From Minisyncoccia bacterium (GTDB taxonomy: Bacteria > Patescibacteriota > Minisyncoccia > Phycocordibacterales > UBA918): a DNA stretch of 64,000 nt. The notes beneath the pieces were generated by a model. That model saw only the letters and a program-made list of their open reading frames with translations, made no database searches and had not been told where the DNA came from. The stretch spans positions 158,428-222,427 of the forward strand of contig JBKBPM010000002.1 in assembly GCA_046293175.1 (NCBI GenBank). Reading direction: 5' to 3'. The translations under genes and the position numbers were made by a program. Below are positions 41,522 through 64,000 of this stretch, piece by piece; position 1 is the stretch's first letter; every line of letters starts with the position of its first letter.

Positions 41522-42835
41522 ATGGAAATTAAGCAGATAAAAAAGCGTGACGGTTCAATCAAGCCTTTTGATATTGCAAAGATTGAGCACGCCATTCTGA
41601 GGGCTCTCATGGAGACCAATGCCGGTGGAGAAGCAGATGCCAAAAAAGTTGCAACGCTCGTCCATCAAAAAGTAGTATCAATGTGTGTCCAAGCCGGCAC
41701 GGCTGAAGCTGGTGATCCAAAGGCGCAGAAATGTGTTGATGGATACCCAACCGTCGAAGAAATCCAAGACCTGGTTGAGGCGTCACTCATGGAGCTTAAC
41801 TATTTTGATACCGCCAAGGCGTACATCATTTATCGTAATGAGCGGAAGAAGATGCGTGAGCGAGATATTTTCCGCAAACGCCAGCACCTCAAGCCCTACG
41901 AGTACCCAGAACTGTACGAGTATGTTGATGCTATCCGCCACTCCTACTGGGTACACACTGAATTCAACTTTACCGGTGACGTGCAGCACTTCCACGTGAA
42001 CGTCAACGATGCTGAACGAAACGCTATCAAGAACACAATGCTTGCTATCGCGCAGATTGAAGTCGCGGTGAAAAGCTTTTGGGGGGACATATACAAGAAG
42101 ATGCCAAAGCCAGAGATTGGGGCGGTGGGGTCTACTTTTGCGGAATCTGAGATTCGTCACACTGATGCCTATTCACACCTGCTTGAAATTCTTGGTCTCA
42201 ATAATGAGTTTGCCAAGATCAAAGATATTCCTGTGATTAAGCAGCGTATGGACTACCTTGATAAGGTAGCTGAACTCTCACGTACGCAGGAGAACCGTGA
42301 GTACGCACACGCGATCATGCTCTTCTCACTTTTTATAGAACATGTGTCATTGTTCTCACAGTTCCTCATCATGATGTCATTTAACAAGCACAAGAACTTG
42401 TTTAAAGGTATCAGTAATGCGGTCGAGGCAACCAGTAAAGAAGAGAACCTTCACGGCCTCTTTGGTATTGATGTGATCAACATCATTAAAGAAGAACACC
42501 CAGAATGGTTTGATAAGGCGATGCAAGAAGCAATCTTAAAGGCATGTGAAGAAGCGTACGAAGCTGAAAGTCGCGTGGTGGACTGGATTTTCGAAGCGGG
42601 AGAACTCGACTTTTTGCCGTCACAGAACGTGAAGGAATTTATCAAGAATCGTCTCAATAACTCACTTGCGGCTATTGGTATGCCTCGCCACTTTGAAGTA
42701 AGTGAAGCTCTCCTTGAGGAAACTGATTGGTTTGATAATGAAGTCATTGCGACCAAACACGTCGACTTCTTCGATAAGCGTTCAATCAACTACAACAAAC
42801 GCGCTGCCAGTGTCACCAGTGAAGATTTATTCTAG
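41522..42835 (+). CDS. nrdB: Class I ribonucleotide reductase small (beta/R2) subunit with N-terminal ATP-cone domain
   Basis: Start at MEIKQIKKRDGSIKPFDIAKIEHAI (ATP-cone pattern K.RDG....F...KI); remainder is a ferritin-like R2 fold with the metal-ligand E..H pair (AESEIRHTDAYS); the N-terminal 28 codons of the ORF-track call are discarded. Confidence 0.75.
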   Translation: MEIKQIKKRDGSIKPFDIAKIEHAILRALMETNAGGEADAKKVATLVHQKVVSMCVQAGTAEAGDPKAQKCVDGYPTVEEIQDLVEASLMELNYFDTAKAYIIYRNERKKMRERDIFRKRQHLKPYEYPELYEYVDAIRHSYWVHTEFNFTGDVQHFHVNVNDAERNAIKNTMLAIAQIEVAVKSFWGDIYKKMPKPEIGAVGSTFAESEIRHTDAYSHLLEILGLNNEFAKIKDIPVIKQRMDYLDKVAELSRTQENREYAHAIMLFSLFIEHVSLFSQFLIMMSFNKHKNLFKGISNAVEATSKEENLHGLFGIDVINIIKEEHPEWFDKAMQEAILKACEEAYEAESRVVDWIFEAGELDFLPSQNVKEFIKNRLNNSLAAIGMPRHFEVSEALLEETDWFDNEVIATKHVDFFDKRSINYNKRAASVTSEDLF

Positions 42836-42856
42836 TAATGCTGTATTTCTGTCCAT

Positions 42857-44551
42857 ATGTCTATTAACTACCAAGAGCCGTGGTACTGGGTAAATGAAAA
42901 TACCCGAGCCTTCATGTCCCGGGGGTACCTCGTTGACGGTCAGACGACCGAAGAACGAGTTCGTTACATTGGCGAGTACGCCGAAAAAGTATTAAATAAA
43001 CCAGGCTTTGCGAAGAAGTTTGAGGATTATATGAGTCGTGGCTGGATTTCGCTCGCCACACCAGTATGGGCCAACTTTGGTCTTAAGCGTGGTCTACCAA
43101 TCAGTTGTTTTGGCTCGTTTGTGGCAGATGATATGGCGAACATTCTCCATACGCAGGCCGAAGTTGGGATGATGAGTAAGTACGGTGGGGGATGCTCTGC
43201 TTATTTTGGTGATCTTCGTCCACGTGGTAGCGAAATTACCCAGAATGGACACTCATCTGGTCCAGTCCACTTCATGCAGCTGTTTGAAAAGATTCTTGAT
43301 GTGGTGAGTCAAGGAGCAACTCGTCGTGGTGTTTTTGCTGCCTACCTGCCGGTTGAACATCCCGATATTCTTGAGTTTCTCGATATTGGCACCGAAGGGA
43401 ATCCGATTCAAAAAATCAACCATGCAGTGACGGTAACTAATAAGTGGATGGAAGAGATGGTGGCGGGCGATGCTGATAAGCGTGCAATTTGGGCGAAGGT
43501 GATACAGCGCCGCGGTGAAATCGGCTACCCGTACATTATCTTCATTGATAATGCGAACGAAGGGAAGCCAGACGTCTACAAGGACAAGAATCTCCCGATT
43601 TATGCAAGTAATGTCTGTAGTGAGATTATGCTCCCGAGTAACCGTGATTGGTCATTTGTGTGTTGTCTCTCGTCTATTAACATCATGCATTATGATGACT
43701 GGAAGGATACTGATCTCGTCGAAACGATGACCTACTTCCTTGACGCGGTGATGAGTGAGTTTATCTCGAAGCTCGAAGTCATGCGTGATCACGAGGATAA
43801 GGACAAGCGTCTAGCCTTCCGTTTTATGGAACGACCATACAACTTTGCGGTGGCGAACCGTGCGCTGGGACTTGGGGTGCTGGGGTACCACTCATACTTA
43901 CAGTCAAAAGGTCTGCCGTTTGAAAGTGAAGAAGCTAGACGTATCAACAAAGAGATTTTTGCCTTGATGCAAGAGCGGTCACTGAAGGCTTCAGCTGAAA
44001 TGGCTAAAGAGTACGGTGAACCAGAAATCCTTAAGGGTTATGGCCGCCGCCACACAACCACCATGGCGATTGCCCCGACTACCTCATCAGCCTTTATTCT
44101 TGGTCAGGTGTCACAGGGGATTGAACCAATCTGGTCCAACTGCTACATTAAGGACGTGGCGAAGCTCAAGGTGGTTATTAAGAACCCAACACTTGAAACC
44201 TTGCTTGATGAGAAAGGGAAGAACACCAAAGAAGTCTGGGACAGTATTCGTGACAACGATGGTTCGGTGCAACACCTTGATTTTCTCTCTGATGATGAAA
44301 AGGCGGTATTCCGCACCTTTGCCGAGATTGATCAGAGCAAGCTCATTATGCACGCTGGTGAACGGCAAAAGTTTATTGACCAAGGGCAATCACTCAATGT
44401 GATGGTGGCGCCTGATACGCCAGTAAAGGAAATCAACCAGCTCTACCTCCAGGCCTGGAAGCAGGGTTGCAAGGCACTCTACTACCAACACAGTATGAAC
44501 GCCGCACAGCAGTTGACTCGCAAGAAGATTCAGGAACGAGCGCAGAAGTGA
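42857..44551 (+). CDS. nrdA: Ribonucleotide reductase large (alpha) subunit, short form lacking N-terminal ATP-cone
   Basis: 564 aa; conserved catalytic core motifs (CFG...NLC..I pattern: ISCFGSFV, SNVCSEI); paired with ATP-cone NrdB upstream. Confidence 0.85.
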   Translation: MSINYQEPWYWVNENTRAFMSRGYLVDGQTTEERVRYIGEYAEKVLNKPGFAKKFEDYMSRGWISLATPVWANFGLKRGLPISCFGSFVADDMANILHTQAEVGMMSKYGGGCSAYFGDLRPRGSEITQNGHSSGPVHFMQLFEKILDVVSQGATRRGVFAAYLPVEHPDILEFLDIGTEGNPIQKINHAVTVTNKWMEEMVAGDADKRAIWAKVIQRRGEIGYPYIIFIDNANEGKPDVYKDKNLPIYASNVCSEIMLPSNRDWSFVCCLSSINIMHYDDWKDTDLVETMTYFLDAVMSEFISKLEVMRDHEDKDKRLAFRFMERPYNFAVANRALGLGVLGYHSYLQSKGLPFESEEARRINKEIFALMQERSLKASAEMAKEYGEPEILKGYGRRHTTTMAIAPTTSSAFILGQVSQGIEPIWSNCYIKDVAKLKVVIKNPTLETLLDEKGKNTKEVWDSIRDNDGSVQHLDFLSDDEKAVFRTFAEIDQSKLIMHAGERQKFIDQGQSLNVMVAPDTPVKEINQLYLQAWKQGCKALYYQHSMNAAQQLTRKKIQERAQK

Positions 44552-48900: not shown

Positions 48901-49329
48901 ATGGCAAAGAAACTTGTAAAGAAAATCAAGGTTCAGGCAGTGGGCGGTAAGGCAACTCCCGCTCCACCACTTGGACCAGTACTCGGTCAGGCCGGTATCA
49001 ATATCGGTGAATTCGTTAACCAGTTCAACGAACAAACTCGTGCCGAACGCATGGGCGAAGTGGTCCCGGTAGAACTCTCAGTCTTTGATGACCGTTCGTT
49101 CACGTTCATCCTCAAGACCTCACCGGCTTCACGTCTTATCCTCAAGAAGATGGGCAAGGAGAAGGGTTCACAGAAGCCAGGTACCCAGAGTGGTGGTACT
49201 ATCACCAAGGCGCAGATTCGCGAGATCGCCGAAATCAAGGCTGTTGACCTCACTGCCGCTTCAGTTGAAGCAGCGATGCGCAGTATCGAAGGTACTGCAC
49301 GATCAATGGGTGTAAAGGTCGTAGATTAA
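48901..49329 (+). CDS. rplK: 50S ribosomal protein L11
   Basis: 142 aa; canonical L11 sequence (VGGKATPAPPLGPVLGQAGINI...). Confidence 0.95.
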   Translation: MAKKLVKKIKVQAVGGKATPAPPLGPVLGQAGINIGEFVNQFNEQTRAERMGEVVPVELSVFDDRSFTFILKTSPASRLILKKMGKEKGSQKPGTQSGGTITKAQIREIAEIKAVDLTAASVEAAMRSIEGTARSMGVKVVD

Positions 49330-49527: not shown

Positions 49528-49932
49528 ATGCTTGACCAACTATTAACTATCAAGAGGCCCGAACTTGTTATCGTGGTCCACGATCCAGTCCCAGGCGAGT
49601 CACCCTTTTCTAGACCTTCGCCGCGGATTGTCTCGACTATGGTTGCAAAGCAACCTTCAATCTGGGGTGTTGCCAAACGTGTGCAGATGTTACTTGTCCC
49701 ACCGAATGACCGTGTAACCAATTCGTTCACTGTCCACGAGTCTCGGCGCGTTGAAGTGAATGGTGTCGACCGATTCTACTTCATGGTTAGCGGTCATAAC
49801 TTTAGCTTTGGCAAACGACTTCGGAGGCAGTTCTTCCAACCAGGTTCAGCGGCCGCTATGTTTGGTCCGGTTGATGGTCCGGTCGTCGAAGAGATGATTC
49901 AAAAGTTCCTCGACGAACTAAAGCGGAAGTAA
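49528..49932 (+). CDS. Hypothetical protein (first gene of the deoxynucleotide island)
   Basis: 134 aa; no recognisable motif. Confidence 0.4.
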   Translation: MLDQLLTIKRPELVIVVHDPVPGESPFSRPSPRIVSTMVAKQPSIWGVAKRVQMLLVPPNDRVTNSFTVHESRRVEVNGVDRFYFMVSGHNFSFGKRLRRQFFQPGSAAAMFGPVDGPVVEEMIQKFLDELKRK

Positions 49933-50061
49933 GTCGCTAATACATCAGCCATGCTGACAATCCACCCGTCCAGTTCGTGTAACTGGGCGGTTTTTGCATG
50001 TGATTGCGTTTGGGTTCATAGTTTGTTACCTTTGTCCCAGTTGTTGGACAAGGAGATCCAC

Positions 50062-50490
50062 ATGTTAGAAGTGTACGTTGGTGCTGCTCTTACCGGAGCT
50101 CCGCCTGAATTCGTCAATAACTTCCTGCCGGCACTTAAGGCAGGAATTCGCCAGATGGATATCCATGTGTTCGACTTCATCGGTCTGGAGGGAGAAACGG
50201 CACTCAAGGTCTATATTCATGACCGGAACTGCACCGAGCTGGCCGATGTCTGTGTTTTTTTGGTTGGTGAACCATCGACTGGCCTCGGCATGGAAATCAT
50301 GCTGCGGGAGGGGACAGGGAAACCTGCTCTGTTCTTTGCACAGGAGAACGCTCGTGTGACCCGCATGCTTCTCGGTTTTCTCGAGGTGCGCGGGCAGAAA
50401 CTCCACCGCTACAACACTGCCGAAGACATTTGTCATGTGCTGCGGGAGCATGTCCTCGCTCGGGATCCGAACTACTGGTCGCGCGGCTAG
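50062..50490 (+). CDS. Nucleoside 2-deoxyribosyltransferase-like / Rcl(DNPH1)-like protein
   Basis: Start at ATG preceded by AGGAGA SD (inside ORF 49951..50490); N-terminal VYVGAALTG..F and C-terminal ADVCVFLVGEPSTGLGMEIMLREGTGKPAL match the NDT-family A-D/G/E-x-GT-x-E-x-G-x-A-x-GKP signature. Confidence 0.6.
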   Translation: MLEVYVGAALTGAPPEFVNNFLPALKAGIRQMDIHVFDFIGLEGETALKVYIHDRNCTELADVCVFLVGEPSTGLGMEIMLREGTGKPALFFAQENARVTRMLLGFLEVRGQKLHRYNTAEDICHVLREHVLARDPNYWSRG

Positions 50491-50507
50491 GGGCAGAGCT
50501 GAATCAA

Positions 50508-50540
50508 AGAAAGGGCGCGGGAGACTGCGCCTTTTTCTTA
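50508..50540 (+). terminator. Intrinsic terminator GGCGCGGGAGACTGCGCCTTTTTCTT
   Basis: GC hairpin plus T-run after NDT-like gene. Confidence 0.5.
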
Positions 50541-50570
50541 TCTCATATCACTGCTATACTACTAACCAAT

Positions 50571-51674
50571 ATGGAATTGTCGCGACAGGGAGCCTTGCCC
50601 GCCCAACAGCTACAACAGCTTATGGACAGTGGTTTTATAAAAGGAGCAGACACCACTCATGTGTCACCAGCTTCACTTGATCTCACCGTCAGTGATGAGG
50701 TGTATGAAATTGAAGGGCTCCTCTTACCAAAAAGTGGGGAGACCATTAAGAGTCTCTTGCCACTTATGGATGCAAGGCGTATTGATTATAGTAATCCCTG
50801 TCGAGCGAAGAAACTTTACCTCGCTCGCCTCAATGAATCCCTCGAGCTTCCATCTGCTATCTATGGGTACTGCAATCCGAAATCATCAACCGGAAGACTT
50901 GATGTCCATGTACGGGTGCTCGCTGATGGGGTACCACGCTTTGATTCAGTGACTCCAAAGGGTTTTGTAGGTGAGTTATGGGTGGCGATTATCCCGCAGT
51001 CTTTTTCTGTCCAACTTCATGTGGGAACGCCGCTGACCCAGCTCCGCCTTTTTACCGCTGATACCCGCTTTTCAGAACTTGATTTAGAAATTGCCATGAA
51101 AGAAGGTTTGGTCTATAGTCGTGAATCTGGTGAAAAACTTTCGTATAGTGAATTGGTAACTAACGATCAAGATGGGGCAGTGGTACTCACCGCTTTAGTC
51201 GAAGAAGGGCTTTGTGGCTATGAGTGTATAGCGATCCCTGACCAAATTATTGACGTGGCACAAGTGGGTGGCTATGAAGCAGCCGAGTTTTTTAAACCGC
51301 TAACCATTGACCGCGGGGCACTGCGTCTTAAGCGCGACCGCTTTTACATACTCTCGGGTGCTGAAGCCGTACGGATTCCACCAGGATTAGCCTCTGAGAT
51401 GGTGCCAATGGATGAACGCAGTGGTGATTTTCGCTCCCACTATGCCGGTTTCCTTGACCCTGGATGGGGCTACGGACAGGACGGTGCTGGGAAGGGGCGC
51501 CCGTTTACGCTTGAGGTCCGACCGTTTGAGGATTTAGTAGTGAGACCAGGTCAACCAATCGCGAAGATTCGTTTTGAGCGAATGGCTGAGGTGCCCACCT
51601 TTCATTACGACACAAAACAATCAAACTACCTCATCCAGTTTGGTCCAAAACTTGGAAAGCAATTTAAGAGCTAA
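50571..51674 (+). CDS. Tandem dUTPase-fold dCTP deaminase-like protein (PF06559 'DCD'-like)
   Basis: Start at MELSRQG.. (upstream 47 codons overlap previous gene and terminator); both halves resemble Dcd (KSSTGRLDVHVRV ~ GRSSLARLGLMVHV; FLDPGWGYG...FTLEVRPFEDLVVRPGQPIAKIRFERM ~ IDPGWSG..IVLEFYN...LRPGMLIGALSFE). Confidence 0.65.
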   Translation: MELSRQGALPAQQLQQLMDSGFIKGADTTHVSPASLDLTVSDEVYEIEGLLLPKSGETIKSLLPLMDARRIDYSNPCRAKKLYLARLNESLELPSAIYGYCNPKSSTGRLDVHVRVLADGVPRFDSVTPKGFVGELWVAIIPQSFSVQLHVGTPLTQLRLFTADTRFSELDLEIAMKEGLVYSRESGEKLSYSELVTNDQDGAVVLTALVEEGLCGYECIAIPDQIIDVAQVGGYEAAEFFKPLTIDRGALRLKRDRFYILSGAEAVRIPPGLASEMVPMDERSGDFRSHYAGFLDPGWGYGQDGAGKGRPFTLEVRPFEDLVVRPGQPIAKIRFERMAEVPTFHYDTKQSNYLIQFGPKLGKQFKS

Positions 51675-51678
51675 ACAA

Positions 51679-51708
51679 AAACCCCGCGACAATGTCGCGG
51701 GTTTTTTT
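51679..51708. terminator. Bidirectional terminator AAAAACCCCGCGACAATGTCGCGGGTTTTTTTG between convergent DCD-like and thyX-like genes
   Basis: Perfect GC hairpin with A5/T7 flanks. Confidence 0.6.
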
Positions 51709-51714
51709 GTTTAG

Positions 51715-53076
51715 CTAGTCCTTTTTTACGATATCGTGCTCACCACGTTTGATATTGAAGCGCCCTGGTTCAGGGTCAAGATGGAGTATAAGGCCACTGT
51801 CACCATAAGCATCTTCAAGCATGTGGGCCATCTCAGCCGCTCTTGCGGCGAGGGTGGGGTGGACGACACTCGTAGCCCGGAGTTCAACGAGATACACCAG
51901 AGCCGGTAGGTCACCGGTGAGGTAATTACTGATGTTGTTGCCCATGGCGTGGTAGTACTGAGCGATATACGCATCATTGGTCAAGGCTTCAATAGCAGCT
52001 TTTTGATTAGCAATAAGCGCTTCTGCTTCGCTGCGCAGGGTTGGGGTGAGTTCATCAAGATACCACTCATGGAAACCGATTTCAGTGGTGAGGAGTGGCA
52101 TGCGCTGTGTCACTGCGCGGTGGCGCTGGATGTCACGGAAGGAACCAAAGTCGAGCGTAAAAGCAAAAGCTACTTCACCAGTTGTACCGAGCCACTTTGG
52201 CAACTCAGTTTTGGCCGGGCGGTTTTTAAGCAGAGACTCGTACGGAATCAGTTCAGTGCGATCAATGCCATCACGCACCAGAGCGAGAGATGGAGTTTCT
52301 GGATCGTGATAGTAATAGTGTGCCATGGTCTCGGCCACATATGCCTCCGTTGCTTCATAGCGCTTCTTTTCGCGACTAAATGAGTTGGGATAGGCAGCAA
52401 TCATGCCGTCTTCGAGCTTCTGCGCAATATCACGTACTTCTGGCAGTGGATGGTGGCGGAGAATAACAATCCGATCTGCAAATTGACGAAGGGTACCACT
52501 CCACGCGAGGTTCGTTGAAGCACCAGCCGGGAGGAAGCCACGACAGATATCAAAAGCTCTAGCGGCAATAGCCTTATCGTATACGGCTTCCTTCTCACCG
52601 TCGCCAAGTGGGTACCGCTCTTTGAGAGCGTCTTTCATCTCGGCGACAGCTTTGAGATAAAAGGCCCGCCAGTTTTCGAGAATGCTTGTACCGGCGTCTG
52701 AAGCAATTGGGTTAATAAACGGTTGATGAGCAAAATCTATATAACGAGTTGATGCCTCCTGGCCGTTGTAGAGCTTGTAGTCCTGAATCGCTTTAGCGGC
52801 GAGCATTGATACTCCTTCAATAAAAACGACCGCAAAACCGCAGTCACCAATTGATTTATGGCCGTAGCCGACATAGTACGTCGACATGAATTTGTCTGCG
52901 CCTTTTTCGGCAAGTACAGTGAGGTGTTCAGCGACACCACCAACCGAGCGAGAGTGGAGCGCTTGGAGCATTGCGAGCGCTTCAGCGGTGAGAGTGGCGC
53001 CTGGATCAATAATAACAATATGACCACCGTCTTTAAGTAATTCTTTTTGATGATTAAGGGATTCAATTGATTGCAT
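51715..53076 (-). CDS. thyX: Flavin-dependent thymidylate synthase ThyX-like, tandem-fused (two ThyX folds in one 453-aa chain)
   Basis: First half aligns to ThyX core but has QDYK in place of RHR while keeping Q.S.RY-like QEASTRY; second half has RHR (DIQRHRAVTQRMP) but lacks the S..S.RY segment; both halves retain the C-terminal R..LP / R.L..F pattern. Confidence 0.7.
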   Translation of the reverse strand: MQSIESLNHQKELLKDGGHIVIIDPGATLTAEALAMLQALHSRSVGGVAEHLTVLAEKGADKFMSTYYVGYGHKSIGDCGFAVVFIEGVSMLAAKAIQDYKLYNGQEASTRYIDFAHQPFINPIASDAGTSILENWRAFYLKAVAEMKDALKERYPLGDGEKEAVYDKAIAARAFDICRGFLPAGASTNLAWSGTLRQFADRIVILRHHPLPEVRDIAQKLEDGMIAAYPNSFSREKKRYEATEAYVAETMAHYYYHDPETPSLALVRDGIDRTELIPYESLLKNRPAKTELPKWLGTTGEVAFAFTLDFGSFRDIQRHRAVTQRMPLLTTEIGFHEWYLDELTPTLRSEAEALIANQKAAIEALTNDAYIAQYYHAMGNNISNYLTGDLPALVYLVELRATSVVHPTLAARAAEMAHMLEDAYGDSGLILHLDPEPGRFNIKRGEHDIVKKD

Positions 53077-53230
53077 ATATCTCTATTGTACGCTTTTTCT
53101 AGGGCAACAATTAAACGATTCTCGGTTTTGACAGGGGACAGTCACTTTGACTAGATTGACCGTTGAGCAAAGCTGTTTTTGAGTGCCTCGAATATTTGGC
53201 TTGAAACCGTGGTATTAGGTAAAATAGCGT

Positions 53231-53926
53231 ATGCCTGGAACTTTAATTGTCCTTGATGGTGCTGATGGCGCTGGCAAGGCTACTCAAACTCGTTTACTCG
53301 TTGATCGCTTAAATGCTGAAGGGTATGTCGTTCATACTCTCGATTTCCCGCAATACACCCAGAATCATTTTGGTCGTCTCCTCCGTGAATGTCTCGATGG
53401 TAAGCGCGGTGATTTTATTGGCCTTGATGCCCGGTTGGCCTCAACGATTTTTGCTGCCGACCGTTTTGAATCAGCGCCGATTATTCGAGAATGGCTTGAA
53501 AGTGGGGCAGTGGTAATTCTCGACCGGTATGTGAGCTCAAATATGCTGCATCAAGGTGCCAAGATTTATGATGCCGAAGAACTATCAAACTTTTTAACCT
53601 GGCTTGATCATATGGAACATGGTGTCTTTGGCATTCCTCGTCCCGACACTATCGTGTATCTTGATGTGCCATTTGATGTTCGAAAAAAGCTCAAAGCTGA
53701 AGCGGTGGCAGCTGGAAAACATGGGGTAGAAGTAAAACTCGATCAAGCCGAAGCTAACGACCAGCATCAGCAAGATGCTGAGGAGAATGCTAAACGTTTA
53801 GTGGCGCTTCATAATGAATGGCGGACGGTAGTTTGTGTAGATGGTGATACACTTTTATCTCGTGAAGCTATCCATGAGCAAGTCTACGAAACCGTAAAGC
53901 CAATCTTGCCGCCACGTTACGAGTAG
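53231..53926 (+). CDS. tmk: Thymidylate kinase-like P-loop kinase (paralog 1)
   Basis: 231 aa; P-loop IVLDGADGAGKATQ, DRY motif (LDRYVSSNMLHQG), Tmk length. Confidence 0.7.
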   Translation: MPGTLIVLDGADGAGKATQTRLLVDRLNAEGYVVHTLDFPQYTQNHFGRLLRECLDGKRGDFIGLDARLASTIFAADRFESAPIIREWLESGAVVILDRYVSSNMLHQGAKIYDAEELSNFLTWLDHMEHGVFGIPRPDTIVYLDVPFDVRKKLKAEAVAAGKHGVEVKLDQAEANDQHQQDAEENAKRLVALHNEWRTVVCVDGDTLLSREAIHEQVYETVKPILPPRYE

Positions 53927-53929
53927 GGT

Positions 53930-54352
53930 ATGGAACTCAAAGTCAAAAAGCTACACCCCGATGCCAAGCTACCGAGCTATGCGCACGCGAGTGATGCGGG
54001 GATGGATTTGTATACGGTTGAGTATTTTGTTATCGAACCAGGAGCGCATGTGATTGCAAAGACCGGTATCGCCCTTGTTATACCAGATGGGTATGCCGCC
54101 CTTGTATGGGACAAAGGTGGTATTGCGAACAAACGTCACCTCAAAACCGTGGGCGGCGTGTTTGATACTGATTATCGGGGGGAGTATCTCATCGGCCTCT
54201 ACAATTTTGGGACGGAAGCACAGGCTTTTAAGGCAGGTGATAAGATTGCGCAGCTCATTATACAACGAGTTGAACACCCGACTCTCATTGAGGTGACTGA
54301 ACTCGATGCAACACCCCGTGGGGAAGGCCGATTTGGTAGTACTGGAGAGTAG
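53930..54352 (+). CDS. dut: dUTP diphosphatase (dUTPase)
   Basis: 140 aa; all five dUTPase motifs (ASDAGMDLY, KTGIAL, GVFDTDYRGE, RGEGRFGSTG). Confidence 0.9.
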   Translation: MELKVKKLHPDAKLPSYAHASDAGMDLYTVEYFVIEPGAHVIAKTGIALVIPDGYAALVWDKGGIANKRHLKTVGGVFDTDYRGEYLIGLYNFGTEAQAFKAGDKIAQLIIQRVEHPTLIEVTELDATPRGEGRFGSTGE

Positions 54353-54361
54353 CGTACAATA

Positions 54362-55051
54362 ATGAAAACATTTATGGAAAAAGCAAAATTGATTGTCGTA
54401 GACGGTGGGGCAAATATTGGTAAGGCGACACAAGCCGACATGCTCATGAACCGGCTCATGAATGAAGGGTATACGGTTGGGAAGATGGATTTCCCGCGCT
54501 ACAACCAAAACACTATTGGCCACTTCATCAATGAGTTTATTGATAGTGATAGTCCATCTTTGGCGACCTTGCCACCCAAGTGTTTTGCGATTCTCTTTGC
54601 GGCTGACCGTTTTGAATCAAAAAAGCAGATTGAAGAATGGATAGCCGAAGGACGGGTGATTATCTTTGACCGGTACGTCAGCGCCTCGATGCTGCACCAG
54701 GGGAGTAAGATTACCGATATCGATGCGCGGGAGGAGTTCCTTCGTTGGGTAGAGCACGTGGAGTATGAAATATTTGGTATGCCGCGCCCCGACCTCACGG
54801 TCTATCTTGATGTACCACCAAATGAGAGTGATAAGCTTCTCGGTTATGTAGAAGAGCTTGGGGTGAAAGTCATAAACGATGAAAGTAAGGCAAAGATCGA
54901 CCAAGCCAAAGTTTCTGATTGCGCAAAGTACCTTGCTGCTATTAATCACAACTGGGTGACGGTACCGTGTATGGCTGATGGTAACCTCCGCAACCGTGAT
55001 GATATTCACGAAGAAGTGTATCAGGCGGTCAAAAGTAAGGTGTTGATTTAA
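54362..55051 (+). CDS. Thymidylate kinase-like P-loop kinase (paralog 2, divergent P-loop)
   Basis: 229 aa; IVVDGGANIGKATQ, FDRYVSASMLHQG; clear paralog of 53231..53926. Confidence 0.6.
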   Translation: MKTFMEKAKLIVVDGGANIGKATQADMLMNRLMNEGYTVGKMDFPRYNQNTIGHFINEFIDSDSPSLATLPPKCFAILFAADRFESKKQIEEWIAEGRVIIFDRYVSASMLHQGSKITDIDAREEFLRWVEHVEYEIFGMPRPDLTVYLDVPPNESDKLLGYVEELGVKVINDESKAKIDQAKVSDCAKYLAAINHNWVTVPCMADGNLRNRDDIHEEVYQAVKSKVLI

Positions 55052-55172
55052 GAGTCTAGTCAAAAAAGCCTGCAGACAAGGAACGAGAGCGAGTAAATGT
55101 GAAGCGTATTAGATATACGATGAACTTTTACGAGCGAGCAGTGACGTCGTATCCAGGTTTTTTGGACGGACT

Positions 55173-55544
55173 CTAGTACATGGCGGTGCGAGCCCGGTTT
55201 ACTATCTCCTTTACATCATGACTTGCTTTTACGATGTAGTCTTCTGGCTTGAGTGATACCGCCTCATAGACATTTTCTGGAGCGCTGTAGTTTGTAAGGT
55301 AGATGACCTTGGCGGTTCGTCCCCAAGCATCTTCACGGATTTTTTTCATCGCTTCATATCCATCCATATTTGGCATATCAATATCCATGAGAATGAGTGA
55401 CGGGTGATATTCAAGCGCAAGAGCAATCGCCTCAGTATTGTCTTTGGCGATTAACACATTGATACCGGCCTCACTAAACGCAAAGCGGTACATTTCGCTC
55501 AGTACCATATCATCATCAACGAGTAAAATAGTTTTTTGGTCCAT
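55173..55544 (-). CDS. Stand-alone response-regulator receiver domain (CheY-like)
   Basis: 123 aa; LLVDDD...LILMDIDMPNMDG...K motif set of receiver domains; no output domain. Confidence 0.8.
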   Translation of the reverse strand: MDQKTILLVDDDMVLSEMYRFAFSEAGINVLIAKDNTEAIALALEYHPSLILMDIDMPNMDGYEAMKKIREDAWGRTAKVIYLTNYSAPENVYEAVSLKPEDYIVKASHDVKEIVNRARTAMY

Positions 55545-55704
55545 ATTGACAGTATATCACCTGCGTAGGCTAGTGGGTAGCAAATCGTTTTCTTTAGCTT
55601 CACTGCCAAAAATCTTGTATACTACAGCTACTAAATATCCGCCCTATGATCTAAGTACCTGCGACATTGATGAGAGGAATTATCTAAAGCTAATTTACTA
55701 TCGT

Positions 55705-56973
55705 ATGGAACACTATTCATTCATCAAAGCGCAGGATCCAGAATTGTATACCGCTCTTGTTGGCGAAGAGGCCCGCGAAGCGCGCGGGGTAGAGCTTATC
55801 CCAAGTGAGAACTACGTCTCACGAGCGGTACTTGAGGCCAATGGTTCTGTGTTTACCAATAAGTACTCTGAGGGGTATCCCGGCAAGCGGTACTACGGCG
55901 GACAAGAGTATACTGATATTGCGGAGACGCTCGCTATCGAGCGGGCCAAAGAACTTTTTAAGGCCAAATATGCTAATGTGCAGCCACTTGGGGGTGCAGC
56001 AGCGAACGTCGCGATGTACTTTGCTTTGATGGAGCCAGGTGATACCGTCCTTGGTATGGATCTCAGTCATGGGGGACACCTCACCCATGGACATCCCACT
56101 ACTGCCATAAACAAAGTCTTCAACTTTGTCCGCTATAAGATGAAAGATGTTGAGACGGGAGAAATCGATTACGAGGAATTACGTCGTGTCGCCCTCGAAT
56201 ATAAACCAAGGGTTATCCTGGCTGGCTTCTCTGCGTATAGTCGTGAGCTTGATTATCAAAAGTTTGTTGATATCGCCAAAGAAGTTGGTGCGTACACCGT
56301 CGCAGATATGGCTCATATTGCTGGACTGATTGCCGGTGGGGTAGCGAAGAATCCGTTTGACTTCGGTTTTGATGTGATTACCACCACTACCCACAAGACA
56401 CTTCGTGGTCCACGTGGGGGAATGATTCTTGTTCGTGATGATGAAGAGATTGCGAAGAAAATCAATAAGGCAGTTTTCCCCGGTATGCAAGGTGGTCCAC
56501 ATATGCACATTATTGCAGCGAAGGCGGTCGCTTTTGGAGAGGCGCTCACACCAGCCTTTAAGGTCTATGCGGCCCAGATTCTCAAAAATGCCAAAGCAAT
56601 GGAAGCGGTCTTTAAGGCTGAAGGTGTACGTCTGCTCTGTGGCGGAACAGATAACCATCTCCTCGTGGCTGATGTCTTTGGAAGTCTTGGGGTCACTGGT
56701 CAGGAGGCCGAGACGGTGCTTGATGAGGTCGGTATCACCCTTAATAAGAATATGATTGCCGACGATACTCGTACGGCGATGGATCCGTCTGGTATTCGCT
56801 TTGGTACCCCAGCGATGACTACTCGAGGCATGAAAGAAGGGGAAGCGACCAAGCTCGCCGAAATCATGATTACTGCCATGCGCGCGAAGTCCGATGCTAG
56901 GAAGAAAGCCGAACTCCAGAAAGAGGTGCAAGCGCTTTGTGAGGCGTTCCCCGTCCCAGAGAAAATGGTTTAA
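55705..56973 (+). CDS. glyA: Serine hydroxymethyltransferase
   Basis: Start at MEHYSFIK (inside ORF 55438..56973; upstream part overlaps the receiver gene on the other strand); PLP-lysine motif TTTTHKTLRGPRGG. Confidence 0.9.
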   Translation: MEHYSFIKAQDPELYTALVGEEAREARGVELIPSENYVSRAVLEANGSVFTNKYSEGYPGKRYYGGQEYTDIAETLAIERAKELFKAKYANVQPLGGAAANVAMYFALMEPGDTVLGMDLSHGGHLTHGHPTTAINKVFNFVRYKMKDVETGEIDYEELRRVALEYKPRVILAGFSAYSRELDYQKFVDIAKEVGAYTVADMAHIAGLIAGGVAKNPFDFGFDVITTTTHKTLRGPRGGMILVRDDEEIAKKINKAVFPGMQGGPHMHIIAAKAVAFGEALTPAFKVYAAQILKNAKAMEAVFKAEGVRLLCGGTDNHLLVADVFGSLGVTGQEAETVLDEVGITLNKNMIADDTRTAMDPSGIRFGTPAMTTRGMKEGEATKLAEIMITAMRAKSDARKKAELQKEVQALCEAFPVPEKMV

Positions 56974-58515: not shown

Positions 58516-60201
58516 ATGGAAGCTGTTATCTGTGCTGCTATCAAAGACGCGCTGGTCGAACTTGGTCTCCCCGAGGTAGTTTTTTCCATTGAGCACCCGA
58601 AGATCCTTGATCATGGTGATTACGCCTGCAACATAGCGATGGTTCTGGGTAAGCAGGTGGGGCAGGCACCACGCACGCTAGCGGAGCAAATCCTTGCGAA
58701 GCTTCAAGGTCAGATTGAGTATGTTGAGCGGATCGAAATCGCTGGTCCGGGTTTTTTGAACTTTTACCTCAGTCGAGACTTGTTCTCAGCTGAAGCTGTC
58801 CGTGTTTTACAGCTGGGAGACACTTGGGGTAAAAATGATAGTTGGTCAGACAAAAAAGTAGTTGTTGAATATACCGACCCCAATCCGTTTAAAGAGTTTC
58901 ATATTGGTCATCTTTTTACCAATGCCGTTGGTGAATCAATCGCTCGTCTTTTTATGATGAATGGAGCTGAAGTGAAGCGTGTTTGTTACCAAGGTGATGT
59001 TGGTCTTCATGTGGCGTATGCGCTTTGGGGTATGCAAGAACTTGGTATTACTGCGCAGAGCGATTTTACTGCAAAGGATTTGGGTCGTGCCTATGCCCTT
59101 GGTGCCACCACGTACAAAAACGATGAGTCCAAGCAAGAGATGATTCGATCGATTAATAAGGCGGTGTATGATCGTAGTAACGAAGAACTAAACGCCCTTT
59201 ATGACGCAGGACGAACTATTTCTCTAGCGTATTTTGAAACTATTTATCAGACAGTAGGAACCAAGTTCGACGAGTACTTTTTTGAAAGTGAAGCTGGTCC
59301 ACGCGGCAAACAGCTGGTTTTAGATAACCCTACCCATTTCGGAGAAAGTGATGGTGCGCGTGTATTTAAGGGTGAAGACTACGGGCTTCATACTCGAGTA
59401 TTTCTAAATAAAGAAGGTCTCCCGACGTACGAAGCAAAAGAGCTTGCACTTGCAAAAATGAAAGAAGAAAAGCTTGGTGTTTACGATCACTCAGTCATTT
59501 CTACCGCCAAAGAAATCAATGAGTATTTCAAGGTACTTCTAAAGGCTATGAGTTTTGTCTATCCCGATTTAGCTGCTAAGACCGAACATATTGGTCATGG
59601 TATGGTTCGTCTTACTACTGGGAAGATGTCATCGCGAACAGGTGATGTTATTCCAGCTCTTGAATTTATTGAGGATGTCGCAGCTACTGCGCGCGAACGA
59701 ATTGATGCGTCAGGTGTTTCCAGAGCTACCGATACACTTGCGACCCAAATCGCTGTGGCCGCTATAAAGTACGCAACTCTAAAGGGAAGTATTTTCCAAG
59801 ACTCTGTTTTTGATAAAGAGAAAGCCCTCTCTTTTGAAGGGGACTCCGGTCCATACCTGCAATACACGTATGCGCGCTGTCTTTCAGTCCTTGAGAAAGC
59901 GAGGGACGTAGGAATCGAGCCGCAACTTGCGCCAGCACCTGAAGTCCCATACGTGCTAGAACGTATTCTCTACCGTTTTCCCGAAGCGGTGGAGGAGGCG
60001 CTAGACGAGCGAGCGCCACACACTGTCGTAACATACCTCACCGAACTGGCCGGAGAATTTAATTCTTTCTATGCGCATGAAATGATTGCAGATGCGAGTG
60101 ATATATACGCACCATACAAAACCTTACTGACCAGTGCGGTGGCGACCACACTCAAGAACGGCCTTTGGGTCCTTGGTATTGAAGCACCAGAACGACTCTA
60201 A
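58516..60201 (+). CDS. argS: Arginine--tRNA ligase
   Basis: 561 aa; HIGH-type motif PNPFKEFHIGHL, class I ArgS C-terminal anticodon-binding pattern. Confidence 0.9.
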   Translation: MEAVICAAIKDALVELGLPEVVFSIEHPKILDHGDYACNIAMVLGKQVGQAPRTLAEQILAKLQGQIEYVERIEIAGPGFLNFYLSRDLFSAEAVRVLQLGDTWGKNDSWSDKKVVVEYTDPNPFKEFHIGHLFTNAVGESIARLFMMNGAEVKRVCYQGDVGLHVAYALWGMQELGITAQSDFTAKDLGRAYALGATTYKNDESKQEMIRSINKAVYDRSNEELNALYDAGRTISLAYFETIYQTVGTKFDEYFFESEAGPRGKQLVLDNPTHFGESDGARVFKGEDYGLHTRVFLNKEGLPTYEAKELALAKMKEEKLGVYDHSVISTAKEINEYFKVLLKAMSFVYPDLAAKTEHIGHGMVRLTTGKMSSRTGDVIPALEFIEDVAATARERIDASGVSRATDTLATQIAVAAIKYATLKGSIFQDSVFDKEKALSFEGDSGPYLQYTYARCLSVLEKARDVGIEPQLAPAPEVPYVLERILYRFPEAVEEALDERAPHTVVTYLTELAGEFNSFYAHEMIADASDIYAPYKTLLTSAVATTLKNGLWVLGIEAPERL

Positions 60202-60516: not shown

Positions 60517-63500
60517 ATGTCTAAACAACACGGTCGTGAAAACGACAGTGTCGAGGTAGTAACCTCGACCCCAAAGAGTGACGTTGCTCTGCGCGAAGAG
60601 ACTATTCTCGCGTTTTGGCAAGAGCACGATATTTTTAATAAAACACTAGCGACCCCAGCTGGGGAAGCACCAATTGGTGACTACGTCTTCTATGACGGAC
60701 CACCGTTTGCGACCGGGACACCACACTACGGTCATATACTAGCAAGTACCATCAAGGACGCTGTGCCACGCTTTTGGACTATGCGCGGTTACCGCGTCCC
60801 ACGGAAGTGGGGCTGGGACTGTCATGGTCTGCCACTTGAAAACCTCATCGAGAAGAAACTTGGCCTCGCCACGAAGCGCGACATCGAAGACTATGGCGTG
60901 AAGAACTTCAACGAAGCCGCGCGTGGCACCGTGATGGAGTATGCTGATTATTGGAAGATGGCTATCCCTCGGATGGGACGCTGGGCCGACATGGAGAATG
61001 ACTACAAGACCATGGACAGTACCTACACCGAAAGTGTTTGGTGGGTCTTCTCTGAACTCTACAAAAAAGGTCTTGCCTTTGAAGGCTTCAAGACTATGCA
61101 CCTCTGTCCACGCTGTGGGACAACCCTCTCAAACTTTGAAGTAAACCAGGGCTATAAAGATATCAAAGATATCGCGGTGACGGTGAAGTTGCCACTCCTT
61201 GATGAACAGGGTGCTGTGACTGATACCTCACTCCTCGTGTGGACGACCACTCCCTGGACACTCCCAGGGAACTTGGCGGCTGCTATCAATCGTGAGTTTG
61301 ATTATGTGAAGGTGGCGTTGACTTCCGATGGCGTAACAGAAAATCTTATTATCGCCAAAGGACGCCTCGTACAGCTCGGTGATGCATCGTACGACATAAT
61401 CGAAGAAATGAAGGGCGAAGCCTTGATTGGTCGACGTTATCAACCACCATTTCCATTTTTGGCAGGACAGTCGTTTGACCAGACGAATGCCTGGAAGATT
61501 TGGCATGCGGACTATGTCGAGCTCGGTGAAGAGGGGACCGGTGCTGTGCATATTGCTCCTGCTTATGGTGAGGATGACATGCAGCTCGCGAAGACTAATG
61601 GCGTGCCAATTGTTCACCACGTCGACGAGAGCGGTCGCTTCAAAGACTGGGTGACGGGCTTTAACTGTGCGCTGGTGAAGCCAAAAGATGATGATGCTGC
61701 AGGTGTCGATCACAAAGACACTGATATCGAAATCCTCAAGTCTCTCCAGGCCGCGGGCAAGATTTTTAAGAAAGAGAACATCACGCACAGCTACCCACAC
61801 TGTTGGCGCTGTGATACGCCACTCCTCAATTACGCGACTACCTCGTGGTTTGTGAACGTACCAAAGATCAAAGACGAACTCGTCGCCGTGAACAGCGAAG
61901 TTAATTGGGTGCCAGATCACGTCGGTACCAATCGCTTCGGGAAGTGGCTTGAAGGCGCCCGCGACTGGGCTATCTCTCGTCAGCGCTACTGGGGAGCACC
62001 ACTCCCAATCTGGAAAAATCCGACCACTGGTGAGGTGAAGGTTATTGGCTCGCTTAAGGACCTCCAGTCATATATTCGTAAGAGTGGCAACACCTACACC
62101 ATCACCCGTCATGCTGAGGCAGAGAGTAATATCACGGGTGTGATTGACGCGTTTGCCGATGAGAGCAATCACCTCACTGATAATGGTCGGGCACAGGCCA
62201 AAGCTACTGCCGAGACACTTCGATCTCGCGGTGTTACCCGAATTGTCCACTCGGGAATGACCCGAGCCCGCGAGACGGCCGAACTTATTGCAGCCGAACT
62301 CGGACTTCCGAGTGATGCTGTCATTGCCGATGTAAGACTACAAGAATTTAAGGTAGGAACCGAGTGGGAAGGTAAGACCTGGGCCGAGTTCAACTCGCAG
62401 TTTGCCACTGAGGAAGAAAAGTTTGAGAAGACTTTTACTGGAGGAGAGAGTCGGTACGATCTCCTCAAGCGTGTCGGAGCGTGGCTTTATGAATATGAGT
62501 CCAAGCACCAAAATGAACATACTCTGGTTGTTGGGCACGGTAGTTCACTGTTTGCCCTTGAGGCGGTAGCGCGTGGAGCCAATCACGTAGAAATGATGAC
62601 ACTCAAAAAACAGGGTTACCTGAGCAATAGTGAAGTCCGTGACTTGCCATTTACACCGGTCCCACACAATGACCTCTTCCAGCTCGACTACCATCGACCA
62701 TATATCGACGAGATAGAACTCTTCGATACTGACGGTACGAAGCTCGAGCGTATCAAAGACGTCTTTGACTGTTGGTTTGAAAGTGGGTCGATGCCGTACG
62801 CGCAGCACCACTACATGGGAGAGAATCCTGAAGCCTTTGTGGGTACCTGCTTCCCAGCACAGTTTATCGCCGAAGGGCTGGATCAGACACGTGGATGGTT
62901 CTACTCACTGATTGTGCTTGGTACCGCACTTTTTGGTCGCTCTCCGTACGAGAACGTGATCGTAAACGGTCTGGCACTCGCGGAAGATGGCAAGAAAATG
63001 TCGAAGAGTCTCCGCAATTATCCTGATCCGATGGAGCTCGTAGACCGGGTTGGTGCCGACGCTATCCGTTACTACATGATGTCTGCGCCAATTATTCGTG
63101 GCGAAGACCTCAACTTCAGTGAGAAGGAAGTAACTGAACAACAGCGCAAGAATATTGGTCGTTTGCACAATGTACTCGCCATGTACGAGATGTACGCAGA
63201 TGGTACCAAGGCAGATGGTACATCGAGCAATGTCCTCGACTGCTGGATTGTCTCACGCCTCAATCAGCTGATTGGGGAAGTGACAGCTGGCTACGAAAGC
63301 TACGAGCTTGATAAAGCCACTCGTCCACTGGCTGACTTTATCGATGATGTGTCTGTCTGGTACCTCCGCCGCAGTCGTGAGCGCCTGAAGCAGGATTCGA
63401 AAATTGAGGCATCTCCGTCGTTGCGGGTCCCAGCCGATTCTTTCGCCGTAGCAGAAAGTACGTCTCCATCATCAGCTTTCCCGCGCCTTGCATCTGACAC

Positions 63501-64000
63501 TCAATTATCAAATCCTGAGACAAGCGATAAAGAATTGGCATTAGGAACCCTCCGCTTTATCCTGCGAGAACTGGCGAAGGTAATGGCACCAGCCATGCCG
63601 TTCTACGCTGAGTATCTCTACCGCGCGGTGCGCGATGAGAGCGAAGCTGAGAGTGTGCATCTCACGAAGTGGCCGGTAGCAGGGGATACAAACGAGGAGG
63701 TTGTTGAATTGATGAAGCAGGTACGAGAAGTGGTGACCGCAGCCCTTGAAGCACGCACCAAGTCTGGTATCAAAGTGCGTCAGCCCATCGCGAGTGTCAC
63801 TGGTCCAGAGTTGCCAGCGGAGTACCAGTCAATTGTCCTCGATGAACTTAATGCCAAGAGCTATCTAGTAGGGGAGATGATAGCGATTGATACCAACCTC
63901 ACCCCAGAACTTATCGCCGAAGGAGCGGTGCGCGAACTCATGCGGGCCATCCAGGATATGCGTAAAAAGGCCGACCTTACTCCAGCGGATCTCGTTATAC
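60517..64000 (+). CDS. ileS: Isoleucine--tRNA ligase, 5' partial (runs off window end), with inserted histidine-phosphatase-like domain
   Basis: My own frame-1 translation (no track ORF, because no stop in window): PPFATGTPHYGH (HIGH), ...KMSKS; insertion ~62030-62760 contains RHAEAESN...LVVGHGSS (histidine phosphatase/PGAM signature). Confidence 0.9.
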   Translation, partial: MSKQHGRENDSVEVVTSTPKSDVALREETILAFWQEHDIFNKTLATPAGEAPIGDYVFYDGPPFATGTPHYGHILASTIKDAVPRFWTMRGYRVPRKWGWDCHGLPLENLIEKKLGLATKRDIEDYGVKNFNEAARGTVMEYADYWKMAIPRMGRWADMENDYKTMDSTYTESVWWVFSELYKKGLAFEGFKTMHLCPRCGTTLSNFEVNQGYKDIKDIAVTVKLPLLDEQGAVTDTSLLVWTTTPWTLPGNLAAAINREFDYVKVALTSDGVTENLIIAKGRLVQLGDASYDIIEEMKGEALIGRRYQPPFPFLAGQSFDQTNAWKIWHADYVELGEEGTGAVHIAPAYGEDDMQLAKTNGVPIVHHVDESGRFKDWVTGFNCALVKPKDDDAAGVDHKDTDIEILKSLQAAGKIFKKENITHSYPHCWRCDTPLLNYATTSWFVNVPKIKDELVAVNSEVNWVPDHVGTNRFGKWLEGARDWAISRQRYWGAPLPIWKNPTTGEVKVIGSLKDLQSYIRKSGNTYTITRHAEAESNITGVIDAFADESNHLTDNGRAQAKATAETLRSRGVTRIVHSGMTRARETAELIAAELGLPSDAVIADVRLQEFKVGTEWEGKTWAEFNSQFATEEEKFEKTFTGGESRYDLLKRVGAWLYEYESKHQNEHTLVVGHGSSLFALEAVARGANHVEMMTLKKQGYLSNSEVRDLPFTPVPHNDLFQLDYHRPYIDEIELFDTDGTKLERIKDVFDCWFESGSMPYAQHHYMGENPEAFVGTCFPAQFIAEGLDQTRGWFYSLIVLGTALFGRSPYENVIVNGLALAEDGKKMSKSLRNYPDPMELVDRVGADAIRYYMMSAPIIRGEDLNFSEKEVTEQQRKNIGRLHNVLAMYEMYADGTKADGTSSNVLDCWIVSRLNQLIGEVTAGYESYELDKATRPLADFIDDVSVWYLRRSRERLKQDSKIEASPSLRVPADSFAVAESTSPSSAFPRLASDTQLSNPETSDKELALGTLRFILRELAKVMAPAMPFYAEYLYRAVRDESEAESVHLTKWPVAGDTNEEVVELMKQVREVVTAALEARTKSGIKVRQPIASVTGPELPAEYQSIVLDELNAKSYLVGEMIAIDTNLTPELIAEGAVRELMRAIQDMRKKADLTPADLVI

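Follow-up and report, generated by a model that had tools for sequence, protein, structure and literature searches.

A probable housekeeping dTTP-supply cluster with a predicted split-motif tandem ThyX in a Kaiserbacteria-like member of the Patescibacteria

Thymidylate is made by two alternative synthases, and the non-orthologous displacement between ThyA with FolA on one side and ThyX on the other is an established pattern in comparative genomics. Only the chemistry of ThyA yields dihydrofolate, and its coupling to FolA, the dihydrofolate reductase (DHFR), is well established. The active site of ThyX was reportedly located by inter-subunit complementation experiments. Deoxynucleotide genes also cluster in phages that modify their DNA; T4-type hypermodification combines a dCMP hydroxymethylase with a dNMP kinase and a dCTPase. 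Here we report on nine open reading frames (ORFs) at positions 49528-56973 of a 64-kb stretch of contig JBKBPM010000002.1 (the window), for which an earlier note, made from the sequence alone, had raised the possibility of a modified pyrimidine deoxynucleotide. We suggest that its candidacy as a new DNA modification system does not hold and that the cluster reads as the standard dTTP pathway of its lineage: judged by sequence and gene order, the region quite probably serves as the housekeeping cluster for dTTP supply in a Kaiserbacteria-like bacterium of the Patescibacteria (candidate phyla radiation, CPR).

Read through homology, as is all of the biochemistry proposed here, the pathway would draw its deoxynucleotides from a ribonucleotide reductase (RNR) encoded a few kilobases upstream (Table 1). 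A two-domain dCTP deaminase (DCD) would convert dCTP to dUTP, the dUTPase Dut would convert dUTP to dUMP, and a tandem ThyX would turn dUMP into dTMP with methylene-tetrahydrofolate and reduced flavin, releasing tetrahydrofolate. Serine hydroxymethyltransferase (SHMT) would recharge the tetrahydrofolate from serine to 5,10-methylene-tetrahydrofolate, a cycle in which no DHFR is needed, and a thymidylate kinase (Tmk) would phosphorylate dTMP. Within ThyX, the residues of the substrate loop and of the flavin side would come from the N domain and the RHR motif from the C domain; the presence of two kinases would be redundancy left behind by module exchange. The route from dCTP through dUTP, dUMP and dTMP to dTDP, with SHMT as the source of the one-carbon donor, is thus as the earlier note had drawn it, to the extent that homology predicts function.

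The genes were identified by ORF listing and by Pfam and NCBIfam scans. All nine ORFs are present on the strands previously given for them, and their identities stood up to these scans and to profile and fold searches, with the start codon corrected in three (the NDT-like gene, DCD and glyA). Dut and SHMT pass curated NCBIfam cut-offs; DCD, Tmk1, Tmk2 and ThyX lie above the Pfam gathering scores and below the NCBIfam equivalog cut-offs. Similarity searches of the 64-kb window turned up neither ThyA nor DHFR (folA), and likewise no dCMP deaminase, MazG, single-domain Dcd or canonical Tmk, and each cluster gene is there only once, so that the search for other thyA, tmk or dcd copies, proposed earlier, came back empty within the window. 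At 35-64 kb, Pfam scanning took in the larger ORFs, none shorter than 100-110 aa. In the cluster, Rfam gave no family, riboswitch or leader at significance, PADLOC assigned the core enzymes to no defence system, and the only PHROG families matched were thymidylate synthase, thymidylate kinase and dCTP deaminase.

The comparative evidence comes from gene order in relatives, which were seen as neighbourhoods of about 20 kb rather than whole genomes (L-numbers denote their loci, P-numbers the homologous proteins compared) and analysed through neighbourhood maps and a tblastn matrix of presence and position over 84 loci. In essentially all loci where ThyX is at least 60% identical, the order reads RNR, M10 peptidase, SIMPL, SecE, NusG, L11, a variable segment, DCD, ThyX (opposite strand), Tmk, Dut and/or MazG, SHMT, DUF2914, ArgRS and IleRS. 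The order of the window recurs in about 25 related loci (L001-L027) and, with RNR upstream, is common to the Kaiserbacteria-like Paceibacteria; the co-localisation described as remarkable is therefore real. DCD orthologues stand at the same position in relatives (57-96% identical), SHMT is syntenic and 72-93% identical, and in several ThyX loci MazG replaces or accompanies Dut. Farther out in the Patescibacteria, ThyX still keeps to within 1-3 kb of NusG/L11, often with SHMT nearby. Because the order recurs across relatives, we conclude that the co-localisation is far beyond chance and selected, and is not an accident of a compact genome.

The segment between L11 and SHMT behaves as a slot in which modules are exchanged. 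L11 is always on its left in L085, L086, L018, L007 and L010. In L085, L086 and L087 the flanks are as in the window (NusG 96, 91 and 88% identical), and L085 has the highest NusG/L11 identity to the window among the loci that include those genes. The slot of these three loci holds DHFR, a nucleotidyltransferase-like gene, dCMP deaminase, a few uncharacterised genes, ThyA, Dut and Tmk2, and no DCD, ThyX or Tmk1. That of L088, on a 1.08-Mb contig, holds DHFR, a single-domain Dcd, ThyA and Tmk2, and that of L010 holds DCD, tandem ThyX, a canonical Tmk that passes TIGR00041, MazG and Tmk2. The ThyA proteins of L085-L088 score above the TIGR03284 cut-off and the Dcd of L088 above that of TIGR02274. 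DHFR was seen only with ThyA, and the ThyX loci are without it.

Every step of the pathway has thus been replaced in situ in relatives, within one chromosomal slot: the two-domain DCD by a single-domain DCD or a dCMP deaminase, tandem ThyX by ThyA with DHFR, Dut by MazG, and Tmk1 either by a canonical Tmk or by Tmk2. The window itself, like L005 and L007, looks like a mosaic in which a ThyX module, made up of the NDT-like gene, DCD, ThyX and Tmk1, sits beside a Dut-Tmk2 pair shared with the closest ThyA-type relative: its Tmk2 and Dut are 85% and 79% identical to those of L085, where Dut likewise precedes Tmk2. For its DCD and ThyX, the identities to L018, a locus with Tmk1 only, are 91% and 88%. 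Such a mosaic explains the paralogous kinases without new chemistry, which had been read into their presence; Tmk2 is the type that accompanies the ThyA module in relatives.

The alternative module (L085 4790-9415, L086 4633-9431, L087 4758-9570) has features of its own. Besides DHFR, ThyA and a CTP_transf_like nucleotidyltransferase, it encodes a dCMP deaminase of 281 aa with an N-terminal extension of about 150 aa, several uncharacterised ORFs, whose only matches are HIT-like and below threshold, and a weakly HIT-like gene of 155 aa. An NDT-like domain was sought in the extended dCMP deaminases of L085-L087 and of phage Tunturi_5 and was not found there.

The synthase of the window agrees with the ThyX fold and appears to be built from two diverged Thy1 domains. 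The N half matches Thy1 (E = 1.2e-13; 51.7 bits, cut-off 24.8); the C half of the window protein gives no Thy1 match at E <= 10, and we call the protein tandem because the C halves of 12 of 17 orthologues match Thy1 when scanned one by one (best E = 7.8e-6). A C-half profile matched no PDB sequence, and when the C halves were compared by hhalign with canonical ThyX from phages (five sequences), a weak collinear match appeared in the C-terminal third (E = 0.0037, probability 9%). Residues were mapped by HMMER alignment to Corynebacterium ThyX, the family alignment, canonical phage ThyX and jumbo-phage homologues of 20-33% identity. The N half keeps H73 (of 'GH'), E107-x-S109-T-R111-Y112, R179 (in 'R-x-x-LP') and R207, and reads D99-Y-K at the RHR position. 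Retained in the C half are R314-D-x-x-R318-H319-R320 and R400; it has M326, L328 and T330 at the loop Glu, Ser and Arg and Tyr at the 'R-x-x-LP' Arg; its RHR is followed by AVTQRMPLL, without the Ser or Arg. The RHR-X7-8-S motif is therefore complete in neither half, only in the two combined.

These mapped catalytic residues are invariant from Patescibacteria to phages. The simplest reading is that the protein is a fused pseudo-heterodimer, whose C domain would donate its RHR to the site of the N domain; we infer that its dimer would mimic the classical homotetramer with two complete active sites, not four. The residue set hints at no altered chemistry, and since the tandem-ThyX module and the module of ThyA with DHFR swap among near relatives, the former very probably makes ordinary dTMP. 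More than 4000 homologues were found, the best 120 of about 450-495 aa and 64-97% identical, the few with names among these 120 being from Parcubacteria or Paceibacterota. A scan of one genome per GTDB species, queried with two conserved ThyX peptides, found 292 encoding loci, nearly all in Patescibacteria and including Kaiser-, Nomura-, Uhr-, Magasanik-, Moranii-, Dojka- and Buchananbacteria. We consider it much more likely that the tandem protein is an obligate pseudo-heterotetramer with two sites, an uncharacterised architecture serving as the main thymidylate synthase of Patescibacteria and some jumbo phages, than that the NDT-like protein and Tmk2 together handle a non-canonical dNMP. Our literature search found no description of a tandem or fused ThyX or of ThyX in CPR, and within its reach the split-motif form is apparently undescribed.

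Long ThyX proteins with the split motifs kept are also encoded by phages (L089-L092; 461-518 aa, 20-33% identical): Vibrio BONAISHI (480 aa), vB_VmeM-Yong (461 aa), Tunturiibacter Tunturi_5 (518 aa) and Microcystis Ma-LMM01 (491 aa). Those with an annotation bear the name thymidylate synthase. In Tunturi_5 (L090 411-1373, gp49-gp50), ThyX comes after a dCMP deaminase of 320 aa. Long ThyX proteins occur in Chlamydiae too.

The other enzymes of the main route also belong to described families. The two DCD domains score 125.8 (DCD_N) and 122.6 bits (DCD_C) against cut-offs of 21.4 and 22 (E ~1e-36), and the protein is collinear with 2R9Q over 341 residues (E = 1.5e-48); NF005734 (PRK07559), at 248.5 bits against a cut-off of 283, is not reached. 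A published paper places Dictyostelium Dcd2 as a clade nested within CPR sequences and does not state its domain architecture. Dut passes both TIGR00576 (130.7 against 102.55) and NF001862 (119.7 against 103). The tandem DCD, the tandem ThyX, the two Tmks and the DNPH1/NDT-like protein are indeed unlike their Escherichia coli counterparts, as the description of unusual enzyme forms had it; in this lineage these odd-looking forms are the standard ones.

Tmk1 and Tmk2 are 41% identical and belong to the Mycobacterium tuberculosis class, with 'GKAT' P-loop, 'FPRY', 'AADRFES' and 'DRYVS' boxes; PF02223 scores them at 70.3 and 66.3 bits (cut-off 27), and both have a Walker A motif and a DRY box. 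They form a tight run with Dut (gaps of 3 nt from Tmk1 to Dut and 9 nt from Dut to Tmk2). In a neighbour-joining tree the two are sister clades, apart from the canonical Tmks found beside ThyX in distant lineages. Tmk1, the type tied to the ThyX module, has an intact P-loop Asp and DRY/Asn box and scores 129.6 bits with NF005923, under the cut-off. The Tmk1 proteins of the window and L005 are about 55-64% identical to every other Tmk1 and sit on a long branch, which suggests acceleration or replacement of Tmk1 in genomes with Tmk2.

Tmk2, with more than 120 homologues at 55-92% identity, has the P-loop 'DGGANIGKAT' (Asp to Ala) and the DRY box 'DRYVSASM' (Asn to Ser). The acidic P-loop residue (D9 in M. 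tuberculosis) is Ala or Val throughout the Kaiserbacteria-like Tmk2 subclade (L005, L007, L010, L085-L087), followed by a near-invariant Asn, and is kept in the other sequences of the tree comparison. The equivalent of N100 is Ser or Thr in the window Tmk2, P0130 and P0135. More distant members of the Tmk2 family keep Asp/Glu and Asn, and the odd features of Tmk2 point to no particular alternative substrate.

The NDT-like protein is the least familiar member of the cluster. Pfam left it unmatched at E <= 0.01, short of the PF05014 gathering score, and the single sequence matched PDB entries weakly (DNPH1 E = 0.004, MilB E = 1.4). A 14-sequence profile found Rcl/DNPH1 (E = 9e-11), MilB (1.5e-5) and NDT (1.8e-4), and a fold search with an AF2 model (pLDDT 78) matched MilB, cyanobacterial NDT and DNPH1 at TM 0.6-0.7. 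A Tyr, D55, D63 and E79 (the Glu of 'PS-x-G-L-G-M-E') are invariant in the 14 sequences, and the invariant Tyr, Asp and Glu match the Tyr/Asp/Glu triad of Rcl; S73 and T100 align with 'PSLG' and 'LSAM' of DNPH1. Exhaustive profile searching gave 544 cluster representatives at E <= 1e-3, of which those checked were named 'hypothetical protein'. In the window, 80 nt separate the gene from DCD downstream of it; it also occurs in the ThyA-type locus L087. We see in the protein a putative N-glycosidase of (deoxy)nucleoside 5'-monophosphates, and our best guess is one that acts on pyrimidine (deoxy)nucleotides in salvage or pool sanitation, coupled to C-to-U deamination.

The NDT-like clade also includes NDT-NDT tandems and, among P0260 (340 aa), P0346 (317 aa) and P0256/P0270/P0303, two proteins fused in opposite orders to a cytidine deaminase (CDA)-fold domain. 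That domain lies under the Pfam threshold and has a visible H-x-E ... C-x-x-C motif; PF05014 scores the fused relatives at 23-28.6 bits against a cut-off of 28.8. P0346 is Trp-rich where its homologues have Gly, which suggests an organism with UGA=Gly (code 25) translated with the wrong genetic code.

Two further ORFs seem to stand outside the pathway. The 134-aa ORF has no match in Pfam, NCBIfam, PHROG, PADLOC or PDB; its homologues in L018 (55%), L085 (36%) and L007 (29%) occur alongside both ThyX and ThyA modules and, in both loci with mapped neighbours, in the gap that separates L11 from the next pathway gene. The gene is real, though conserved only poorly, and is probably not pathway-specific. 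Read from its sequence, the receiver shows the residues usual for such a domain: acidic pocket, phospho-acceptor Asp, Thr and Lys. Phospho-relay control of the cluster had been suggested from its presence; by tblastn its only match among the loci compared is in the near-identical L005, and no histidine kinase was found among the larger ORFs Pfam-scanned at 35-64 kb. We read the receiver as a lineage-specific insertion without evident tie to the pathway, and find no grounds for such control. An unrelated two-component insertion is present elsewhere in locus L088.

Several observations weigh against a plain housekeeping dTTP pathway and bear above all on ThyX and the kinases. ThyX, both Tmks and DCD all fall under NCBIfam equivalog cut-offs, ThyX reaching 24 bits with TIGR02170 against 87.9; hhalign of its N half against its C half (19 close sequences) showed no mutual similarity. 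We know of no assayed enzyme from the cluster or from the tandem-ThyX family. With about 20 kb seen per relative, sole-copy status of the genes may not hold genome-wide. The Tmk2 subclade is without the P-loop Asp and the N100-equivalent Asn, and all three ThyX lineages with Tmk2 (window/L005, L007 and L010) hold another Tmk, which could mean that Tmk2 is not a plain dTMP kinase. Where Tmk2 co-exists, the Tmk1 of the window and L005 is unusually diverged, 63% identical to that of L018 although ThyX is 88% identical; in other pairs with ThyX 83-87% identical, Tmk1 is 79-90% identical. Tmk2 might accordingly be sub-functionalised, with specificity shifted to, for example, dUMP, dCMP or a 5-substituted dUMP, or with a regulatory role, leaving the dTMP step to Tmk1 or a canonical Tmk. 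The substituted residues of the subclade and its nearest members, the ever-present partner kinase and the single tight Tmk1-Dut-Tmk2 operon would fit this, but in L085, L086, L087 and L088 Tmk2 is the sole Tmk-like gene of the slot, directly after ThyA/Dut, its distant members keep Asp/Glu, the thymine-contacting 'FPRY' and 'DR' are invariant, and the tree pairs Tmk1 and Tmk2 as sisters within one Tmk class; we regard the proposal as unlikely. A slim chance attaches to a joint role in which the NDT-like protein, with its relatives fused to CDA-fold domains, and the Asp-less Tmk2 would handle a non-canonical pyrimidine dNMP, for instance by sanitising or salvaging 5-hydroxymethyl-dUMP or a related base, or by supplying one to DNA.

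The proposal of the earlier note went further, in that the NDT-like protein, ThyX-like protein and second kinase would make or salvage a modified pyrimidine for DNA. It draws some appeal from PDB molecule names, by which DNPH1 relatives act on 5-hydroxymethyl-dUMP and MilB on hydroxymethyl-CMP, from the atypical P-loop of Tmk2 and from long-form ThyX in jumbo phages. Yet the catalytic set of ThyX is complete and invariant, with all hallmark residues of dUMP methylation kept across its two halves, and in the closest relatives the module is exchanged in situ for a cut-off-passing ThyA with DHFR, and dCMP deaminase, at the same position. DHFR is needed only when the thymidylate synthase chemistry oxidises folate, and this swap therefore weighs against a modified base. 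No ThyA-family hydroxymethylase was found in the window (Pfam, and tblastn with two ThyA queries), nor any hydroxymethylase or glycosyl-, amino- or other hypermodification transferase in the cluster and flanking genes scanned. The NDT-like gene accompanies the ThyX module and the ThyA module (L087) alike, PADLOC and PHROG show nothing beyond ordinary thymidylate enzymes, and we consider a modified base very improbable. At the opposite extreme, the genes might be housekeeping genes juxtaposed by chance in a compact genome, without functional link; both strands are used, with four or more transcription units, and CPR genomes are gene-dense. The genes do look like housekeeping orthologues, as this would have it, but in relatives they are clustered, not dispersed, the order is kept down to ThyX identities of 60-70% and replacements occupy the same slot, which leaves chance juxtaposition scarcely credible. 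A selected, lineage-standard and modular supra-operon for dTTP supply is the account we prefer.

The surroundings of the cluster offer some separate observations. In L001 (13068-13802) and L088 (5699-6409), the interval from L11 to the deaminase or DHFR gene contains an F420-ligase-like gene (PF01996, CofE-type gamma-glutamyl ligase); it is absent from the window and may be folate-related. ArgRS of the window (58516-60201) is only 64% identical to that of L005 (3098-4774), and DUF2914, SHMT, Tmk2, ThyX and DCD are 93-97% identical between the two, which points to local replacement or recombination of argS. IleRS (60517-63999, +), which extends past the end of the window, carries a His_Phos_1 domain (PF00300; residues 529-691, E = 5.5e-30) whose insertion splits the catalytic tRNA-synt_1 domain in two, an arrangement kept in L001, L003, L086 and L087. 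The RNR, of class I, has its ATP-cone on the small, radical-generating subunit and none on the large one, as in L003; the RNR of L088 carries it on the large subunit.

Table 1. Positions of the cluster genes and flanking features in the window, with the evidence for each
Feature	Position	Strand	Evidence and remarks
Ribonucleotide reductase	41438-44551	+	Pfam Ribonuc_red_sm + ATP-cone, Ribonuc_red_lgC; same position in L003, L004, L088
RNR small subunit, N-terminal ATP-cone	41438-42835	+	Pfam
RNR large subunit, short (564 aa)	42857-44551	+	Pfam
L11 (rplK), left flank of thymidylate slot	48901-49329	+	80-94% identical in L085, L086, L018, L007, L010
134-aa ORF, no family	49528-49932	+	Homologues in L018, L085, L007
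NDT-like (DNPH1/Rcl/MilB-like), 142 aa	50062-50490	+	Start ATG 50062; profile and fold search
Two-domain DCD, 367 aa	50571-51674	+	PF06559, PF22569, PF22769; N terminus MELSRQGALP agrees with orthologues
Bidirectional terminator-like hairpin at DCD/ThyX convergence	51683-51701	.	8-bp GC-rich stem, then T-run on both strands
Tandem Thy1-Thy1 ThyX, 453 aa	51715-53076	-	Pfam Thy1 (PF02511)
Tmk1	53231-53926	+	PF02223 E = 2e-19
Dut, trimeric dUTPase	53930-54352	+	TIGR00576, NF001862
Tmk2	54362-55051	+	PF02223 E = 4e-18
Stand-alone receiver (CheY-like)	55173-55544	-	PF00072 E = 1.5e-21
SHMT (GlyA), 422 aa, right flank of slot	55705-56973	+	PF00464 E = 4e-154; NF000586 562 bits against cut-off 335

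Set against described enzymes, the members of the cluster differ in the details rather than in kind. The DCD shares its DCD_N and DCD_C architecture with the two-domain enzyme of Agrobacterium tumefaciens (2R9Q; PF06559/PF22569), although in relatives of the window its place is taken by a dCMP deaminase, as in L085-L087, or by the single-domain Dcd of L088. Both kinases share the 'GK-x-T' P-loop, 'FPRY', 'DR' and 'DRYV' with the M. tuberculosis Tmk (1G3U; PRK07933), from which Tmk2 differs in having Ala at the P-loop Asp position and Ser at that of N100, and the window pair in being two paralogues in one operon. The NDT-like protein has the NDT fold, the 'PS-x-G-x-G-x-E' nucleophile motif, an upstream Asp and an N-terminal Tyr in common with DNPH1/Rcl, a 2'-deoxynucleoside 5'-phosphate N-hydrolase that acts on 5-hydroxymethyl-dUMP, and with the CMP N-glycosidases MilB/BcmB, but is only about 15-22% identical to them, has 'YVGxALTxAP' instead of their Gly/Arg-rich N-terminal phosphate loop, and falls in an unannotated clade of its own with about 500 cluster representatives. 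This DNPH1/MilB-like clade, with its link to C-to-U deamination, merits attention.

At the level of the whole locus, phage pyrimidine hypermodification shares with the window a compact dNTP-pool cluster with a dUTPase-fold enzyme and dNMP kinases; the window cluster is without ThyA-family hydroxymethylase, transferases or canonical-base exclusion, and its synthase is exchangeable with a genuine ThyA. Known ThyA/ThyX displacement is alike in that DHFR accompanies ThyA and not ThyX here too. The difference is that exchange takes place in one fixed slot among genus- or family-level relatives, with deaminase, dUTPase and kinase swapped as whole modules, which makes the L11-SHMT slot a clear example of whole-module in-situ non-orthologous replacement among close relatives. 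Classical ThyX, or FDTS (Thermotoga maritima TM0449, M. tuberculosis Rv2754c; PF02511), is a homotetramer with four sites per tetramer, whereas the ThyX of the window would unite two diverged Thy1 domains with complementary halves in one chain. It may thus be viewed as a natural version of inter-subunit complementation that could inform work on ThyX mechanism and inhibitors, and as the thymidylate synthase that would prevail across a large radiation of uncultured bacteria.

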